Shown: positions 611-55,792 of the stretch, one piece after another | Layout: every line of letters starts with the position of its first letter | How positions within the stretch are numbered: position 1 is the first letter of the stretch | Source: Clostridia bacterium | GTDB taxonomy: Bacteria > Bacillota > Clostridia > RGIG6154 | Assembly: GCA_017626145.1 (NCBI GenBank) | Contig: JAGAJK010000077.1 | Coordinates: forward strand, 125,077-189,076 | DNA length: 64,000 bases | Direction of reading: 5' to 3' | Position numbers and translations under genes: made by a program | The notes under the pieces: model-generated | Databases searched by the model: none | Seen by the model: the letters and a program-made list of their open reading frames with translations, nothing else | What the model was told of the DNA's origin: nothing

Positions 611-1546
611 TTATTCAAACTTCGAACGTTTTTTGAATATATCGTCATAGCTTGATAAGAATATGGCAATCATTCCCAGAGTACCACCACAAATTAAGTT
701 AAAATCTAAAGTGTCTTTACCTGACAAAACCGAAAGAATACAAGTAACAACAGCAGAAAAAGGCATAATAGTTGCAACTATTCCTGCGTCAATGTGTTTC
801 ATACAATTCGTTCTTATAACCCAACACATAGAGGATATAATAAGTACGGATAGAGCCAGAAATAATAAATGCATTGGGTCGAAAGATATTTTAATAGGCT
901 CGATTGGGTGTTTAATTCCCGATGTATCTGTTATATACGTAAAGTTTAAAATTAATGAAAATATTCCGCCTGTAATTATGCTGACAATTGATTGTGTAGC
1001 CAGATATAAAGTAGTTTTTAATTCTTTTGCATACACACCTGTAAATGCGATGTTAAATCCATAAAGAAGTCCCGAAATTGCACAAAGTGTTTCACCGATA
1101 CCCCAGCTTGAACTGCTGAACGAAATACCATTTAAAACAAAAGCACTGACTAGACAAACTATTGATGCAAGAGTAGTTGTAAATTTTGGTTTTTGTTTTA
1201 CAAGAAAAAACATAAGTATTGGAACGGTCACACAGGATAAGTTTTCAAGGAAAGCATATTTTGCAGGAGTTGTGTATTGAAGTCCGATTTTTTGAGTAAT
1301 ATTTGCTAAAGCTAAAAATAAGCCTGTAAGAACACCAAGTTTGAGATATTTTAAATTGTATTCTTTTAAATATTTTCTTGATATTATGACAAATGCAATA
1401 AAAGAAAATATTTCTCCGATGCACACTTTTATAGTAGGAGAAAAATATTTATAAAATTCAAGGGTTATCAGAGGAGCAAAGCCCCAAACAAATACAACGA
1501 AAAAGAGTCCTAAGTATGATTTTGCTTTGATGTTTAAAAAATTCAT
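611..1546 (-). CDS. EamA/DMT-superfamily transporter, 10-TM permease
   Basis: Ten hydrophobic segments with the duplicated EamA-type layout. I chose the start at MNFLNIK because GGAG lies 7 nt upstream. The track ORF runs to 1579. Confidence 0.8.
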   Translation of the reverse strand: MNFLNIKAKSYLGLFFVVFVWGFAPLITLEFYKYFSPTIKVCIGEIFSFIAFVIISRKYLKEYNLKYLKLGVLTGLFLALANITQKIGLQYTTPAKYAFLENLSCVTVPILMFFLVKQKPKFTTTLASIVCLVSAFVLNGISFSSSSWGIGETLCAISGLLYGFNIAFTGVYAKELKTTLYLATQSIVSIITGGIFSLILNFTYITDTSGIKHPIEPIKISFDPMHLLFLALSVLIISSMCWVIRTNCMKHIDAGIVATIMPFSAVVTCILSVLSGKDTLDFNLICGGTLGMIAIFLSSYDDIFKKRSKFE

Positions 1547-1691
1547 AAAAATCTCCATTCTGCCGCCATGCGTCGGCACAAATAGTAATCAATTTTCTCT
1601 TATCTGTAGGCAAGGAATGATAAGAACTTTTTTGCCCATGTGCGTTTCTGAACAAGTGTGAAGAAATTTCGCACGGCTGTTTAAATCCGCC

Positions 1692-1730
1692 GGAGGCATA
1701 ACGTGAAATGAATTTTCACGTTATACCTCC
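1692..1730. promoter_or_regulatory. near-perfect palindrome (17-bp arms, 5-nt spacer); candidate operator between divergent LysR and EamA genes
   Basis: GGAGGcATAACGTGAAA-tgaat-TTTCACGTTATaCCTCC has one mismatch. It lies just downstream of the EamA -10 element (TGtTATACT on the minus strand) and about 95 nt upstream of the LysR start. Confidence 0.5.
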
Positions 1731-1825
1731 AATGGCAAATAGTATAACATAACTGTTGATTTTTGTGAATTTTAGGTTTATAATAAGGGTGTGAAAAAAA
1801 TTCAACACTGATAAAGGGGAAAATA

Positions 1826-2665
1826 ATGGATATAAACAGAATTGAAGTTTTAATAAAAGCCATAGAATTAGGCAGTTTGTCTAAGGCTGCAAATGAGTAT
1901 TTGTATACGCCTTCGGCGGCATCTCATATACTTGATGAAATCGAAAGTGAAATAGGTATAAGATTTATTAAACGCAGTTATAAAGGGATCGAGGTTGAAA
2001 AAGGTTGTGAGCAAATTGTAGAAAAGCTTAAACAAATACTTGAGCTAAAAAAAGAAATGGTTGAATTAGCTCAAGAAAAACAAAATAATACAGCTATAAC
2101 AATTGCAACATATGCAAGTTTATCGAAACATGTGCTTCCCGGGATAATAAAAGAATTTAACACTAAATTTCCTCACGTAAGAGTAAATGTTGCAGTTTCG
2201 GATAATATGAAAGATTTTTGTAAAAACAATAAAGTCGATATTTTGTTTAGTGAACAACAAGACTCTGAATATGGTTTGTGGGAACCATTGATAACAGATT
2301 CTTATGTGGCGGTTATGCCTGAAACAGACAAAGCTTTAGATAATATAAATAAAGATGATTTGGATAATTATACGCTTGTTGTTGTAAATGACGGAAAAGT
2401 TTGTTCTTACTTAAATGATAGTAAAAACAATAATATAATAAACGTCGATTCTCATGATGACAGTACTGCAATACATATGGTGAAAGCCGGGATAGGTGTT
2501 GCTGTTCTTCCGAAACTTTCCTTGGATACAGAGGATATTAATTGTGCAGAACTTTCACCAAAACTTACCCGTGTATTGGGACTGACATACAGAAAAGATG
2601 ACTATGAAAACAAATGCCTGCTTCGAGAATTCATTAAATGTATAAAATCAACCATCAAAGGATGA
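1826..2665 (+). CDS. LysR-family transcriptional regulator
   Basis: N-terminal HTH (MDINRIEVLIKAIELGSLSKAANEYLYTPSAASHILDEIESEIGIRF) followed by a substrate-binding domain. AAGGGG RBS. Transcribed divergently from the EamA gene. Confidence 0.85.
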   Translation: MDINRIEVLIKAIELGSLSKAANEYLYTPSAASHILDEIESEIGIRFIKRSYKGIEVEKGCEQIVEKLKQILELKKEMVELAQEKQNNTAITIATYASLSKHVLPGIIKEFNTKFPHVRVNVAVSDNMKDFCKNNKVDILFSEQQDSEYGLWEPLITDSYVAVMPETDKALDNINKDDLDNYTLVVVNDGKVCSYLNDSKNNNIINVDSHDDSTAIHMVKAGIGVAVLPKLSLDTEDINCAELSPKLTRVLGLTYRKDDYENKCLLREFIKCIKSTIKG

Positions 2666-42187: not shown

Positions 42188-43312
42188 ATGAAATTTTATA
42201 ACGGAAATGTGTTGTGTGATGATTTTAAATTCAGAACAGCTTCTTTTGAGGTTGAAAATGGGAAATTTAAAAATATCAGTACCGATAATAAGGAAGAGGG
42301 AACTAATCTTGAAGGTAAATATGTAATACCGGGTCTTATTGATACTCATATGCACAGTGCTTATGGGAAAATGTTTATTGATTTTGATGAAGAAACAGCT
42401 GATGTTATAGCTGAAATTGAAGCCAAGAATGGTACGACAACACTTTGTCCTGCCATTTCAGCTGCACCGCTTAAGAAAATGCTTGGATGTGTAAAGTATC
42501 TGGTTGATTACGAAAATAAGGAGAATATGGCTAAAATCTCCGGCATTCACCTTGAGGGACCATTCTTTGCTGAAAAATTCAAAGGTGCACATTTACCTGA
42601 AAATATCAGAAAGCCAACTGTAGATGAAGCAAAAGCACTTGTTGAAGAAGGTAAGGGTATGGTTAAACTCATTACTATGGCACCGGAACTTGAAGGAGCA
42701 GAAGAAACAATTAAATATCTTAGAGATCAGAATGTCGTAGTATCAATAGGTCATACAGCGGCTACATTCGAAGAAGCAATCAAGGGGGTAGATTGGGGTG
42801 CTACTCAGTCAACGCACACTTTTAATGCTATGTCAGGACTTAATCACAGAGCCCCAGGAACCGTGGGAGCTGTTCTTAGCGATGACAGAGTAAAATGTGA
42901 ATTTATTTGTGACTTTTTCCATGTATCTCCTGATGTAGTGAAGCTTGCTTATAAGCTTAAAGGTGATGATTTAATAAATATGATTACAGACAGCGAGCTT
43001 GGAACCGGAAGACCTGACGGAGAATTCATTGTTAACGGTCGAAAGATTATAGTTAAAGATAAGAAAACTTATACAGAAGACGGAACAATTGCCGGTGGTT
43101 CGACTTTTCTTATTGACGGCGTAAGAAATCTTGTGTCCATAGGAATTCCATTGGAAAGTGCTGTGAAAATGGCTACAATTAATCCTGCTAAGACATTAGG
43201 TATGGAAAATGAAATAGGAAGTATAAAAGAAAATAAGTTTGCTGATTTTATAATACTTGATGAAAAACTTGATATATGCAATGTGTATATAAATGGCAAC
43301 AAGACTGTCTGA
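42188..43312 (+). CDS. nagA: N-acetylglucosamine-6-phosphate deacetylase
   Basis: Amidohydrolase fold with metal ligands (IPGLIDTHMH, HLEGPF, IGHTAA) and the C-terminal ...FIILDE. Confidence 0.9.
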   Translation: MKFYNGNVLCDDFKFRTASFEVENGKFKNISTDNKEEGTNLEGKYVIPGLIDTHMHSAYGKMFIDFDEETADVIAEIEAKNGTTTLCPAISAAPLKKMLGCVKYLVDYENKENMAKISGIHLEGPFFAEKFKGAHLPENIRKPTVDEAKALVEEGKGMVKLITMAPELEGAEETIKYLRDQNVVVSIGHTAATFEEAIKGVDWGATQSTHTFNAMSGLNHRAPGTVGAVLSDDRVKCEFICDFFHVSPDVVKLAYKLKGDDLINMITDSELGTGRPDGEFIVNGRKIIVKDKKTYTEDGTIAGGSTFLIDGVRNLVSIGIPLESAVKMATINPAKTLGMENEIGSIKENKFADFIILDEKLDICNVYINGNKTV

Positions 43313-43325
43313 ACTTCAAATGAAA

Positions 43326-43360
43326 GGAACTGTAAAAAAATCATCGATTTTTTACAGTTC
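43326..43360 (+). terminator. intrinsic terminator after nagA
   Basis: GAACTGTAAAAAA-tcatcga-TTTTTTACAGTTC. Confidence 0.65.
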
Positions 43361-43394
43361 TTCATTTTGGGGAATAGGAAAAAATGTTTCAGAA

Positions 43395-43484
43395 TGGACG
43401 AACTGAGCTGTAAATGCCTGGTCAAAGGCATTTACAGGTACCCGAAGGCGTATGTGATACGCCGAGTTAGGCGAAGTTCGTTCG
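43395..43484 (+). ncRNA. candidate structured small RNA (three-way junction), unclassified
   Basis: Closing stem GGACGAACT/AGTTCGTTC (9 bp) encloses an 11-bp hairpin (CTGTAAATGCC...GGCATTTACAG) and a 7-bp hairpin (GGCGTAT-gtg-ATACGCC). It lies between two terminators in a convergent intergenic region, and no plausible ORF covers it. Confidence 0.3.
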
Positions 43485-43506
43485 AGCAAAAAGGCTTATT
43501 TAATAG

Positions 43507-43535
43507 AAAAAATATCGTACAAAAACGATATTTTT
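43507..43535. terminator. AT-rich hairpin terminator, most likely serving the minus-strand amidase gene and possibly the candidate RNA
   Basis: AAAATATCGT-acaaaa-ACGATATTTT with a flanking T-run on the minus strand. Confidence 0.5.
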
Positions 43536-43642
43536 CCTTAAGTGTGTATTTTTTTGTCGATTTTGACAAACGTACCACATTATAGATAATATTATTTAAG
43601 ACTTCTTGCGGTTATGAACTTTTTTTACATTCCCGTTCATTT

Positions 43643-44215
43643 CTATAATTCTGAAAAACTCAAATATTCAAGTATGCCTCTGTATATTGCATAAGCAAAC
43701 AGATATTGGTTATCACGCAACTTTTCAGCATCCTGCGTATTTGTGATATATGCAAGTTCAATTAAAATTGCAGGCATTGTGGTTCTGCGTAAAACGTATA
43801 GTGTTCTGTTTACTCTTACACCGTTATCACGAGTGCCTACAATAGTTACTATATTGTTCAGTACGTCTTCTGCTAATTCATAAGCCGGAGTTTCTTCGCT
43901 GTATACATAAACTTCGGAACCGTTTAGTTGAGGATTTTCTGACGCATTTGTATGAATGCTTATAAAATAGTCTGCGTTCCATGAATTTGCCATATTTACT
44001 CGTTGTGCCAGACTTGTTCGATTGTTCGTTCCTAAAATAGTATCTATAGTTTCCCTTGAAACCATAGATTCAAATCTGTAATCGTTGTTCAAAAGCTGAT
44101 TAAGATATATCCCAACATTATAGGTTACATCCTGCTCAAGTAATCCATTTCCTTCTGCTCCGCCGTTGATTCCTCCTGGGTTGTGTCCCTGATCAATAAA
44201 AATTTTTATTGGCAT
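43643..44215 (-). CDS. N-acetylmuramoyl-L-alanine amidase (Amidase_3, CwlD-like)
   Basis: IKIFIDQGHNPGG, ...YFISIHTNA... and a Glu-containing LIELAYITN. I chose the start at MPIKIF, which has an AAAGGA RBS. The track ORF runs to 44224. Confidence 0.85.
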   Translation of the reverse strand: MPIKIFIDQGHNPGGINGGAEGNGLLEQDVTYNVGIYLNQLLNNDYRFESMVSRETIDTILGTNNRTSLAQRVNMANSWNADYFISIHTNASENPQLNGSEVYVYSEETPAYELAEDVLNNIVTIVGTRDNGVRVNRTLYVLRRTTMPAILIELAYITNTQDAEKLRDNQYLFAYAIYRGILEYLSFSEL

Positions 44216-44351
44216 AATCATCATCCTTTCTTTATATTATATTTAAAAATGAATATTTTTTTACTTTTTTCAAAAAAAGTCTTTACAAATTCATTTTTGT
44301 GTGATATAATACTTTTTGTCGGTTAGCCAAAGACATAAAAATGGCACATAT

Positions 44352-44426
44352 GCGGGAGTGGCTCAGTGGTAGAGCGTCACCTTGCCAAGGTGAACGTCGC
44401 GAGTTCGAATCTCGTCTTCCGCTCCA
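44352..44426 (+). tRNA. tRNA-Gly (anticodon GCC), encoded CCA
   Basis: Cloverleaf with acceptor GCGGGAG/CTTCCGC, D-arm GCTC-AGTGGTAGA-GAGC, anticodon loop TTGCCAA and T-arm GCGAG-TTCGAAT-CTCGT. Upstream promoter is TTTACA, 17-nt spacer, TATAAT. Confidence 0.95.
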
Positions 44427-44427
44427 T

Positions 44428-44459
44428 AAATCCCAAGGAATTTTTCTTGGGATTTTTTA
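44428..44459 (+). terminator. intrinsic terminator after tRNA-Gly
   Basis: AAATCCCAAG-gaattttt-CTTGGGATTT followed by TTT. Confidence 0.8.
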
Positions 44460-55353: not shown

Positions 55354-55399
55354 ATGTAAGAAAACAGAATAAATTCATACAGAGTGTCGTGTATACCGT

Positions 55400-55590
55400 A
55401 AAACTGATGTTTAGGTATAAACGGTGAAAAGGGAATGAGGTGTGAATCCTCAGCGATAACTGTCGGTGTATGCGTTGAAATTTTTGTATTCGTCGGTGAA
55501 AGCCGGTCATTGGGAAACTGAGAAGGCAGGAAACAAAAGTGTTAGGTCGTTAGCCTTATATAACGCAAGTCACAAGACCTGCTTTGATAT
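55400..55590 (+). promoter_or_regulatory. cobalamin (B12) riboswitch
   Basis: GGTGAAAAGGGAA and GGTGTGAATCC, then ...CTGTCGG..., TCATTGGGAAACTGAGAAGGCAGG and a B12-box-like AGTCACAAGACCTGC. A possible terminator or sequester hairpin (TTATTCC...GGAATAA plus T-run) lies at about 55593-55640. Confidence 0.65.
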
Positions 55591-55792
55591 TATTCCGTAA
55601 TAGATATGCTGCACAGGAATAATGTTTTTATTTGTATTAACTTTAATTGCTTTAAGGATAATTTGGTTACTTTATTACAGATAAAATGTGAATAATCACA
55701 GAAATGACAGCTGTGATAATTTTTAAATTACCATAGCTCTTTTATATTGTAAATTTAAATATGATCGCTTAATAGAAATGGAGGTTGACAGG

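Follow-up and report, generated by a model that had tools for sequence, protein, structure and literature searches.

The three-way junction predicted in the spacer between two convergent genes is best read, at about even confidence, as the GC-rich centre of a MITE-like insertion of about 270-310 nt, which is specific to the lineage, non-coding and rich in hairpins, and its fold as mostly incidental. An inserted DNA element is likelier than a conserved small RNA because only some strains carry the insertion. The host of the insert is one uncultured ruminant-gut Clostridia species. The window, i.e., the whole stretch of DNA that was analysed, comprises 64,000 nt, and the features of the locus are the following.

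42188-43312, + strand: nagA-like amidohydrolase gene (open reading frame; Pfam Amidohydro_1, E = 2.9e-26)
43318-43367, both strands: H1, a complete bidirectional terminator-type hairpin, AAATGA(AA)GGAACTGTAAAAAA - loop - TTTTTTACAGTTC TTCATTT
43326-43635, no strand assigned: strain-variable segment of 310 nt, delimited by blastn of strain L008 against the window
43348-43367, + strand: left flanking imperfect direct repeat, TTTTTTACAGTTC--TTCATTT, which doubles as the 3' arm of H1
43367-43585, + strand: 72-codon ORF with a TTG start, reading through the element; the search for related DNA made use of its translation
43369-43393, + strand: left inverted-repeat end of the inner element of ~268 nt, GGGAATAGGAAAAAATGTTTCAGAA (inverted repeat I7)
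43396-43483, + strand: three-way junction composed of P1, P2 and P3
43396-43404/43475-43483, + strand: P1, GGACGAACT with AGTTCGTTC, 9 bp including one G·U (G43397·T43482)
43408-43437, + strand: P2, CTGTAAATGCCT/AGGCATTTACAG (43408-43419/43426-43437), a perfect stem of 12 bp closing a loop of 6 nt
43447-43463, + strand: P3, GGCGTAT/ATACGCC (43447-43453/43457-43463), a perfect stem of 7 bp closing a loop of 3 nt
Junction strands between P1, P2 and P3: GAG, GTACCCGAA and GAGTTAGGCGA
43505-43538, - strand: H3, a 14-bp hairpin, rich in AT and flanked by T/A runs on both sides
43612-43635, - strand: right inverted-repeat end, reverse complement GGGAATGTAAAAAAAGTTCATAA
43621-43642, + strand: right flanking direct repeat, TTTTTTACATTCCCGTTCATTT
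43643-44215, - strand: convergent downstream gene for an N-acetylmuramoyl-L-alanine amidase (Amidase_3; Pfam E = 2.9e-45)

The upstream gene product (MBO5454343.1) carries the NCBI name N-acetylglucosamine-6-phosphate deacetylase, and the amidase gene encodes 190 aa as called in public contigs. The spacer between the two genes measures 330 nt, the length of non-coding DNA given in the original prediction. The GC-content is 0.48 at 43400-43499 versus 0.22-0.34 in the remaining spacer.

The segment is present in some strains and absent from others. In strain L008, 23 nt (CTCCCGACATTTTAGTCGGGAGT) occupy the place of the 310 nt of the window; the blastn alignment is 99.5% identical to either side and is interrupted exactly at 43326/43635. 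These 23 nt form the interior of a single perfect 16-bp hairpin. Since the core of this hairpin too differs from that of H1, L008 is not a clean empty site, and at least two events, or a recombinational replacement of the whole spacer, would be needed to connect the two sequences. Hairpin cores are exchanged, and outer stems kept, between L008 and the window. The sister species (L021) has the same nagA/amidase order, with a 110-nt spacer, one 16-bp hairpin and no insert. The insert is also absent after the amidase gene of relatives L020, L022 and L023, which have simple terminators there, and the segment was not found after nagA in six GTDB relatives. A conserved structured RNA is hard to reconcile with its absence from L008, L021 and three more relatives. 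Contig breaks inside the element were considered as a sign of a repeat and dismissed; the breakpoints are scattered, and low coverage would fit.

A third strain, L019, does have the insert, with 8 of the 310 positions changed (2.6%). The flanking coding sequence of this strain differs at 9/1575 positions, and eight of the nine changes are synonymous (dS ≈ 2.3%), so that the insert evolves at about the synonymous rate. The two changes located within the junction, G43416T in P2 and T43477C in P1, are both pair-breaking and uncompensated. The MFE of the junction is -40.3 kcal/mol (z = -5.5) in the window but only -31.1 kcal/mol (z = -2.6) in L019.

H1 and H3 bound the junction, as had been proposed for a nagA terminator upstream and a hairpin with a T-tract downstream. 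H1 lies at 43327-43360 (extendable to 43318-43367), and its core is a perfect 13-bp stem (43327-43339/43348-43360). It reaches -17.8 kcal/mol on the + strand and -18.2 on the - strand (z = -5.7 and -7.7), was scored as terminator-like by the terminator scan and was also recovered as inverted repeat I4. H3 (43505-43538) is more stable on the - strand (-15.0 kcal/mol, z = -4.8) than on the + strand (-10.1 kcal/mol, z = -2.0), with pair probabilities of 0.97-0.98 and about 0.7, respectively. For ~100 nt downstream of the amidase stop codon there is no stable hairpin. H3 is the first one to follow and hence the likely amidase terminator. On the + strand, its predicted fold could end an RNA containing the junction.

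Long perfect hairpins serve as terminators in this genome, and H1 and H3 are terminator-like for nagA and amidase, respectively. Both facts would suit a reading of the whole region as tandem terminators, in which all hairpins are stacked intrinsic terminators of the two convergent genes; this reading is, however, very improbable. P2 is followed by GTACCCGA on the + strand and CTCAGTTC on the - strand, P3 by GAGTTAGG and TTCGGGTA, respectively, and neither was flagged by the terminator scan. As no U-tract follows either hairpin on either strand, P2 and P3 are not terminators. P1 encloses P2 and P3, which is unlike tandem terminators, and the relatives manage with one hairpin at this place. The single hairpins of L008, L021, L020, L022 and L023 share with H1, H3 and bidirectional intrinsic terminators in general their long perfect stems and A-/T-runs. 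The P1-P2-P3 junction, in contrast, is branched and lacks a U-tract, being an addition to the terminator and no part of it.

The ends of the inserted DNA are compatible with a small mobile element. The inverted ends match at 20/25 positions (empirical p = 0.0008), although they are imperfect and of low complexity, and the left one closes a multibranch fold on the - strand. The direct repeats gave a local alignment score of 13 (empirical p = 0.001). Both p values were obtained against GC-matched pairs from the window, and the two statistics are not independent, because the right inverted end overlaps the right direct repeat. Two copies of TTCATTT are present, at 43361-43367 and 43636-43642, and their extension gives an imperfect direct repeat of ~22 nt, of ambiguous length; the second copy is part of the flank common to the window and L008. 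No IS was found within the sequence examined.

Under the favoured reading of a MITE-like insertion, the ancestral spacer would have been short and have contained a single long perfect hairpin, as in L008 and L021, and the insertion would have taken place at this bidirectional terminator common to the nagA-like and amidase genes. In the window lineage, H1 with TTCATTT would still be a complete nagA-like terminator, with the element of ~268 nt (43368-43635) directly after it. The imperfect inverted ends of ~20-25 nt and the bracketing direct repeats (the 7-nt TTCATTT, extendable to ~22 nt) would then be the signature of a miniature non-autonomous element. Alternatively, the integration may have duplicated the 3' arm of the hairpin, and a tandem duplication of the terminator followed by insertion into the loop of the second copy would fit equally well. 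The element would have no promoter of its own and be transcribed by read-through only. It would have moved the amidase gene away from its old terminator, and H3 would now terminate amidase transcription on the - strand. P1, P2 and P3 would represent internal palindromes that fold in any read-through RNA, where they could block exonucleases or insulate both convergent genes, and the three-way architecture itself would probably not be under selection.

The spacer might instead have grown locally, without any mobile DNA, by palindrome replication errors (arm duplication and template switching), leaving neutral junk between two terminators. Four copies of the motif GGAAyTGTAAAAAA, alternating in orientation (43326, 43347, 43370 and 43620), are in keeping with such a process, and the swapping of hairpin cores within kept outer stems (L008 versus the window, and P2 in the window versus the homologue P0127 described below), the perfection of all the hairpins and the divergence at a neutral rate point the same way. 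Pieces of the L021 spacer align to 43372-43393, 43540-43556 and 43617-43675, suggesting that ancestral flanks were duplicated, but these alignments are short and of low complexity. However, no sequence from which the GC-rich core of ~90 nt could derive was found in the 81 kb examined, and a homologue diverged by ~10% is found on another contig, though the sister species has the locus without the element. A local origin is considered quite unlikely.

The junction itself is a genuine structural prediction. The closed three-way junction of about 90 nt described originally is present in both pairing and fold, far better than chance: the 90-nt segment has an MFE of -40.3 kcal/mol (z = -5.46), and 0/200 dinucleotide shuffles were equally good. 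A 116-nt version gave z = -4.65 on the + strand and -4.80 on the - strand. In a scan of both strands, the junction region ranked within the top ~10 of 2558 100-nt windows, the others at the top being mostly long perfect terminator hairpins. P1 pairs as claimed, over 9 bp with one G·U, P3 is the expected perfect 7-bp hairpin, and the stem of P2, given as 11 bp, needs correction to a perfect 12 bp. The centroid structure is the three-way junction with P3; in the MFE structure, P3 is exchanged for two small alternative helices. Mean pair probabilities on the + strand were 0.96-0.99 for P1, 0.97 for P2 and 0.84 for P3 in RNAs ending at or before 43545. With the RNA extended to 43650, the probability of P1 falls to 0.23 and long-range pairs compete. 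The lone G·U of P1 is a weak argument for the + strand. Apart from this pair, all helices are perfect Watson-Crick palindromes, which are typical of young DNA palindromes and terminators and not of old RNAs.

Related DNA was sought with the translated 72-codon frame. The word-indexed search of 5.8 billion clusters returned no match for the 72-aa ORF, nor for a composite of stop-free six-frame segments. An exhaustive HMMER search of 1.84 billion representatives returned one real match, P0127, an intact 59-aa ORF call on a 621-nt ENA contig, with 52% identity to the window frame. P0126 was rejected as a homologue; its 10 repeats score only 3-5 bits each and it matches nine unrelated Pfam families, a case of repeat inflation. 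Neither P0127 nor P0126 had a match by tblastn against plasmids and phages or in the IMG/VR scans.

The arms of P1 and H3 are retained in P0127, but the 21 nt carrying P3 are missing and the P2 region, longer by 6 nt, is unrelated in sequence, with flanks about 90% conserved. With P3 gone and P2 altered, the architecture of three helices is not maintained. The core of P2 is replaced between the window and P0127, and its outer parts are kept. The P1 and H3 arms are more conserved than the sequence next to them, with forced changes at 1/46 versus 11/77 (p = 0.03). The visible changes in P1, one-sided and inferred from codons, strengthen the pairing, as G·U becomes A-U and U·G becomes C-G; H3 keeps both arms, with both forced changes in the loop. 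The pattern hints at some constraint on the P1 and H3 helices. The P2 region of P0127 encodes LSQA-KR-GLAE, as an in-frame perfect palindrome would (null p = 0.05 only), and therefore a hairpin of up to 14 bp may persist there with new sequence. In the few sequences compared, conservation and covariation in relatives are nevertheless largely missing, given the purely pair-breaking junction changes of L019 and the loss of P3 in P0127.

The intact ORF of P0127 raises the question of a small protein gene, encoding 59 residues from an ATG. The copy in the window would then be either a pseudogene with a frameshift or translated from the TTG. In addition to the 52% identity between the two frames, the window has the same ATG (43384), located 4 nt after AGGA, where an extra T leads out of frame into a 9-codon ORF. 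This interpretation can hardly be maintained against a single homologue in 1.84 billion representatives, none in 5.8 billion clusters and no Pfam or PHROGs family for ORF 43367-43585. Moreover, the peptide mirrors DNA palindromes, its 7-residue gap falls exactly on hairpin P3, the L019 changes in frame are three non-synonymous and three synonymous (counted by hand), and the long frame in the window has no ATG or RBS. ORF 43367-43585 was judged non-coding; the earlier assessment of this only ORF across the segment, as having no RBS and an implausible composition, holds, and the ORF starts at TTG and matches no protein family.

The suggestion of a novel RNA motif survives in part: the fold is strong and has no Rfam family, but it is not conserved in relatives. 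A role as an sRNA or a 3'UTR is possible but unsupported. The corresponding rival explanation, which we regard as unlikely, is a rare sRNA gene on the + strand, with a scaffold closed by P1, variable modules P2 and P3, a linker and H3 as terminator, either acquired horizontally or carried by a mobile cassette beside the nagA terminator. It would account for the strong fold, robust to context, and for the high GC-content of the core within an AT-rich spacer, which is expected of a structured RNA in an AT-rich genome. The G·U of P1 on the + strand, the conserved P1 and H3 arms of P0127 with their pairing-compatible changes and the possible persistence of a hairpin in its P2 region fit as well, as does the C-rich single-stranded junction GUACCCGAA; C-rich seeds are in use by several Firmicute sRNAs. 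However, no credible sigma-70-type promoter precedes the junction. No site with at least 9/12 matches was found upstream on the + strand, and the best box found by hand, TTGGGG-17-CAGAAT, has 7/12 matches and a -10 T that is changed in P0127. The strong-looking sequence TTGACA-16-GATAAT (43563-43590) was rejected as a promoter, as it points antisense into the amidase gene, has two -35 bases changed in P0127 and is attributable to chance. Also against an sRNA gene are the weakness of H3 on the + strand compared with the - strand, the absence from a 99.5%-identical strain and from the sister species, the divergence of L019 at the synonymous rate with pair-breaking changes, the loss of P3 and replacement of P2 in the only homologue, and the lack of an Rfam family. 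RsaE/RoxS-type RNAs are trans-acting intergenic Firmicute sRNAs with C-rich seeds. The element is similar to them in its ~100-150 nt of highly structured sequence, C-rich unpaired stretch and downstream hairpin with a T-run, and differs in that its promoter is not conserved, relatives do not share it and Rfam has no match for it.

A bolder version, a rare horizontally moving sRNA cassette, seems distinctly improbable. Here, a conserved frame of P1 and H3 would form a slot for exchanged or gained hairpin modules (P2 replaced and P3 added relative to P0127), and the cassette would insert at the foot of an intrinsic terminator, duplicating its 3' arm; core swapping would extend to the host terminator as well (L008 versus the window). 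If true, it would imply an undescribed process that targets and rewrites palindromes.

The earlier failure to assign a known RNA family was reproduced with Rfam 15, which gave no family at the gathering threshold. Over 42800-44300, the best matches were miRNA-like ones on H1 (~20 bits), and for the junction alone the best was a 12.7-bit M-box fragment. Over the whole window, the gathering search returned two tRNAs, one cobalamin riboswitch and nothing else. The element contains GAGUUAGGCGAAG, resembling the 5' signature GUUAGGUGAGGCU of the M-box (Mg2+) riboswitch (RF00380). This candidate was rejected, since 12.7 bits compare with a gathering threshold of 44 and the match is truncated to 40/169 positions, was not recovered in the 1.5-kb search and has no downstream gene to regulate. 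A REP/BIME array was discarded because hairpins H1, P2, P3 and H3 are unrelated in sequence. A type I toxin-antitoxin was set aside (no hydrophobic small ORF), along with an IS200/IS605 PATE (the direct repeats do not fit) and group II intron domain V or a retron (the features misfit or Rfam would detect them).

Further copies of the element were sought as well. There was no second copy in ~81 kb of the same genome (the window extended by 17 kb in all, with mismatches allowed and a repeat scan), and blastn of the element against plasmid and phage collections gave none. Neither an exact 22-mer of the element nor six 8-mers back-translated from its frame occurred in IMG/VR and JGI metagenomes. 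Covariance model R1 of the junction, run over ~190 kb, recovered only the element itself.

The nearest known counterparts are bacterial MITEs and other intergenic repeats that form stem-loops (Correia, ERIC, RUP, BOX, bcr1 and Tn3-derived TIMEs); a survey of stem-loop families is available (PMC2267715), as is a paper on TIMEs (PMC4133298). At 268-310 nt and with no coding capacity, the element is MITE-like in both size and coding, and terminal inverted repeats, a further MITE feature, are present. Like MITEs and stem-loop repeats, it is small (~270 nt) and non-coding with imperfect terminal inverted repeats, is flanked by short direct repeats in a 3' intergenic position between convergent genes, and is present or absent between near-identical strains. 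Its predicted RNA/DNA structure is likewise very stable and may carry a terminator-like hairpin. Unlike MITEs, it is not multi-copy in the data examined, as no second copy was found in 81 kb and public data yielded one remote, diverged homologue, P0127. It also has no known partner transposase or matching IS ends, the "empty" site of L008 is inexact, and the direct repeat may be of 7 nt or ~22 nt, although transposases seldom duplicate targets as long as 22 nt.

This locus may serve as a caution: an excellent fold of one sequence (z about -5, a GC island and a closed three-way junction) is no evidence for a functional RNA. If the favoured reading of a MITE-like insertion is true, the locus would be an ordinary example of turnover between genes, in which a small piece of hairpin-rich DNA entered a terminator. 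Of mild interest are the swapping of hairpin cores with the outer stems preserved and an insertion that apparently gave the amidase gene a new terminator in place of its old one. Should the rarer reading hold, the element would represent a new family of mobile sRNAs or hairpin cassettes.

The junction lies between convergent nagA-like and amidase genes, and the following features were located there:

42188-43312, plus strand: amidohydrolase gene (NCBI name N-acetylglucosamine-6-phosphate deacetylase), upstream of the junction
43318-43367, both strands: H1, left flanking 20-bp hairpin interrupted by a 2-nt bulge, -18 kcal/mol on each strand
43396-43404/43475-43483, plus strand: P1, GGACGAACT paired with AGTTCGTTC, 9 bp including one G·U
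43408-43419/43426-43437, plus strand: P2, perfect 12-bp hairpin
43447-43453/43457-43463, plus strand: P3, perfect 7-bp hairpin
43505-43538, both strands: H3, AT-rich right flanking hairpin, -15.0 kcal/mol (z = -4.8) on the minus strand and -10.1 kcal/mol (z = -2.0) on the plus strand
43643-44215, minus strand: Amidase_3 N-acetylmuramoyl-L-alanine amidase gene, downstream and convergent, with tRNA-Gly next

The original prediction placed a closed three-way junction at this site, and P1, P2 and P3 are all present in the sequence; P2 is a perfect hairpin as described, one pair longer than the 11 bp claimed. The 90-nt segment folds on the plus strand with an MFE of -40.3 kcal/mol (z = -5.46), a value reached by 0 of 200 dinucleotide shuffles; on the minus strand z is -5.2 and two P1 pairs are lost. 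In the centroid structure the three-way junction forms; in the MFE structure small alternative helices replace P3. For a plus-strand RNA ending by 43545, pair probabilities are 0.96-0.99 for P1, 0.97 for P2 and 0.84 for P3; in an RNA reaching 43650, with competing long-range pairs, that of P1 falls to 0.23. The junction region is among the approximately 10 most extreme of the 2558 100-nt windows in a fold scan, the remainder being mostly long perfect terminator hairpins, and its GC-content is 0.48, compared with 0.22-0.34 elsewhere in the spacer. The fold is confirmed and is no chance feature.

P2 and P3 were ruled out as terminators, since no U-tract follows either of them on either strand, and it is highly unlikely that the array, flanked by H1 and H3, represents plain tandem terminators. 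A fold check of the interval from the amidase stop codon to H3 found no stable hairpin. The neighbouring tRNA-Gly(GCC) gene (44352-44426, plus strand) has its own terminator hairpin (44428-44455) and is preceded by a promoter-like TTTACA-17-TATAAT (44282-44310) with a TG before it.

The Rfam search proposed with the original prediction was run and assigned no family to the junction region; an M-box match was a truncated fragment of 12.7 bits and is not credible. The ORF spanning the element has no Pfam or PHROGs family. A mini-ORF of nine codons, MFQNGRTEL (43384-43413, plus strand), begins 4 nt downstream of AGGA and has its stop codon within the 5′ arm of P2. A small protein gene is a most improbable explanation of the region.

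Other structured elements occur in the window. A multi-stem structure at 1631-1740 (plus strand; -45.8 kcal/mol, z = -5.1), containing a 16-bp hairpin, sits in the divergent spacer between the genes for an EamA-like transporter (611-1579, minus strand) and a LysR-type regulator (1826-2665, plus strand), and has no Rfam match. A cobalamin riboswitch (RF00174, 54 bits) is located at 55385-55600 (plus strand), upstream of genes marked as CbiQ and ABC-transporter (ECF-type) by the contig gene calls.

Four haplotypes of the species, an uncultured Clostridia bacterium, were obtained via exact-protein look-ups. Contig names (XIEF21-1_SAMN…) suggest that the samples come from the survey of ruminant guts by Xie et al. 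2021 (PMC8199421). The window-type haplotype is 100% identical in many samples, strain L018 differs from it by one SNP in 8.5 kb, and strain L019, at 99.24% identity, has the insert. Strain L008 is 99.5% identical and lacks it: 23 nt stand in place of exactly 43326-43635 (310 nt), and the spacer is one perfect 16-bp hairpin (AAATGAAACTCCCGAC-ATTTTA-GTCGGGAGTTTCATTT, -26 kcal/mol). The sister species L021 (amidase 89% identical) keeps the topA-nagA/amidase order, and its 110-nt spacer contains a single 16-bp hairpin and no junction. Three other relatives, L020, L022 and L023 (91%, 92% and 81%), have one simple hairpin after the amidase gene, and in six GTDB relatives identified by their NagA (55-88% identity) the genes downstream are different and the element is absent. 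Hence, a short spacer with one hairpin is the ancestral state, and the 310 nt represent a derived, lineage-specific state. The expectation of a conserved structured RNA is not supported by these strains and relatives.

Seven metagenome contigs from several samples (L009-L013, L016, L017) break off within the insert between 43393 and 43593, from the left at 43393, 43451, 43472 and 43476 and from the right at 43445, 43522 and 43593, for which low coverage, the hairpins themselves and repeats in other parts of the genome are possible causes. In three related MAGs (L002 4150-4215, L003 4165-4235, L004 4160-4240), a common conserved stretch of about 60 nt (CATACGCCGTCGCTTTTTCAAAYGGYAATCTGAA…TTTTCYTAAAGACT) lies between nagA upstream and an ORF starting MKRFELDMTKG downstream, and could act as a leader or a regulatory element. 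We take this ORF, recognised by eye, to be MatE-like.

L019 and the window differ at 17 of 2237 nt. Nine differences are coding, eight of them synonymous over 344 synonymous sites (dS ≈ 2.3%). The insert has 8 differences in 310 nt (2.6%; p = 0.003 versus all coding sites by Fisher's test), and the junction has 2 in 90 nt (2.2%); therefore, the insert, including the junction, diverges at about the synonymous rate. Compensatory change, proposed as a check on the junction, was not seen: G43416T disrupts the P2 pair G43416:C43429 and T43477C the P1 pair A43402:T43477, both Watson-Crick and both uncompensated. The L019 junction is less stable, with an MFE of -31.1 kcal/mol (z = -2.6) against -40.3 kcal/mol (z = -5.5) in the window, and the register of P1 is shifted. 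These changes, small in number, argue against strong structural constraint.

No second copy was found in the window with mismatches allowed or by a window-wide repeat search, in about 17 kb of further sequence of the same genome, among all recovered loci with a covariance model of the junction, in plasmids and phages (blastn), in IMG/VR and JGI metagenomes (exact 22-mer or six back-translated seeds), or in 5.8 billion protein clusters (ORF and six-frame composite queries). The frame translation, run as an exhaustive HMMER query against 1.84 billion representatives, gave two matches. P0126, a 597-aa ORF on a 100-kb NCBI contig, is built of ten nearly identical units, each 55 or 62 residues long, which inflate its resemblance to the element; it seems to be a reading frame across tandemly repeated DNA (period 165 or 186 nt), and was rejected as an artefact (3-5 bits per repeat, with nine unrelated Pfam families matched in like manner).

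P0127, a 59-aa ORF on a 621-nt ENA contig, shares 52% identity across 62 residues and is a real homologue. Its nucleotide differences were inferred from codons, and the counts are minimum forced changes: at least 12 of 129 aligned nt outside P2/P3, with 1 of 46 in the P1 and H3 arms versus 11 of 77 elsewhere (p = 0.03). The only P1 change, G43397A, turns G·U into A-U; T43395C makes an extra C-G pair possible below P1, and both H3 changes are in the loop. A 7-codon gap corresponds to the loss of the 21 nt bearing P3. The stretch corresponding to P2 has another sequence and 6 nt more. The peptide read from it, LSQA-KR-GLAE, would result from an in-frame perfect palindrome, whose stem could have up to 14 bp; the null probability is only 0.05, because codon degeneracy is permissive. 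The T-run of P0127 appears one base shorter, fusing the mini-ORF ATG to the long frame. The element family thus has at least two members, with P1, the linker and H3 in common. The predicted three-way architecture as such is not conserved, P3 being an indel and P2 a replaced hairpin.

A promoter scan found no site with at least 9/12 matches on the plus strand upstream of the junction. Within the insert, a near-consensus TTGACA-16-GATAAT (43563-43590, plus strand, 11/12 matches) faces into the 3′ end of the amidase gene in the antisense direction; it is probably a chance occurrence, because two of its -35 bases are altered in P0127, as is the -10-like CAGAAT (codon-inferred). A rare mobile sRNA gene would accord with the GC island, the conserved P1 and H3 arms and the pairing-compatible changes in P0127. 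It is nevertheless unlikely, given the absent promoter, the weakness of H3 as a plus-strand terminator and the demonstrated presence/absence polymorphism, derived state, end repeats, neutral-rate divergence and lack of conserved architecture.

The end repeats border the inner part of the insert, 43368-43635. Its imperfect inverted ends, GGGAATAGGAAAAAATGTTTCAGAA on the left and, as reverse complement, GGGAATGTAAAAAAAGTTCATAA on the right, match at 20/25 positions (empirical p = 0.0008), and imperfect direct repeats, TTTTTTACAGTTC--TTCATTT and TTTTTTACATTCCCGTTCATTT, bracket it (p = 0.001); because they overlap at the right end, these two signals are not independent. The whole 338 nt gives z = -7.5 on the plus and -9.9 on the minus strand. 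H1 with TTCATTT forms a complete terminator built like the hairpin of L008: the outer stem AAATGAA/TTCATTT is common to 43318-43367 and L008 4131-4168, and the inner stems and loops are unrelated. This difference is a "hairpin-core swap", and a similar swap seems to separate P2 from its counterpart in P0127. A modular, terminator-targeting small-RNA or hairpin cassette is very doubtful. Parts of the L021 spacer, all short, can be aligned with 43372-43393, 43540-43556 and 43617-43675, so some flanking motifs may be duplicated ancestral sequence; a local palindrome-generating duplication with no mobility is quite unlikely. Two histories fit: a MITE-like insertion at the terminator foot with target duplication, or a terminator unit that was first duplicated and then received an insertion in the loop of its second copy.

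The best-supported reading, to which we give about even credence, is a lineage-specific, non-coding, hairpin-rich insertion at a bidirectional terminator, which may be MITE-like or the remnant of an integration. Its closest counterparts in behaviour are bacterial MITEs and other intergenic repeats that form stem-loops (PMC2267715, PMC4133298), and it resembles MITEs in size, non-coding nature and inverted ends. The bracketing direct repeats are a candidate target duplication, and the L008 spacer is a candidate empty site; since the element is not multi-copy in the sequence data searched, it should be called MITE-like rather than a MITE. Such an element would be transcribed by read-through only, H3 may serve as a replacement amidase terminator, and the fold may have some stabilising or insulating effect.
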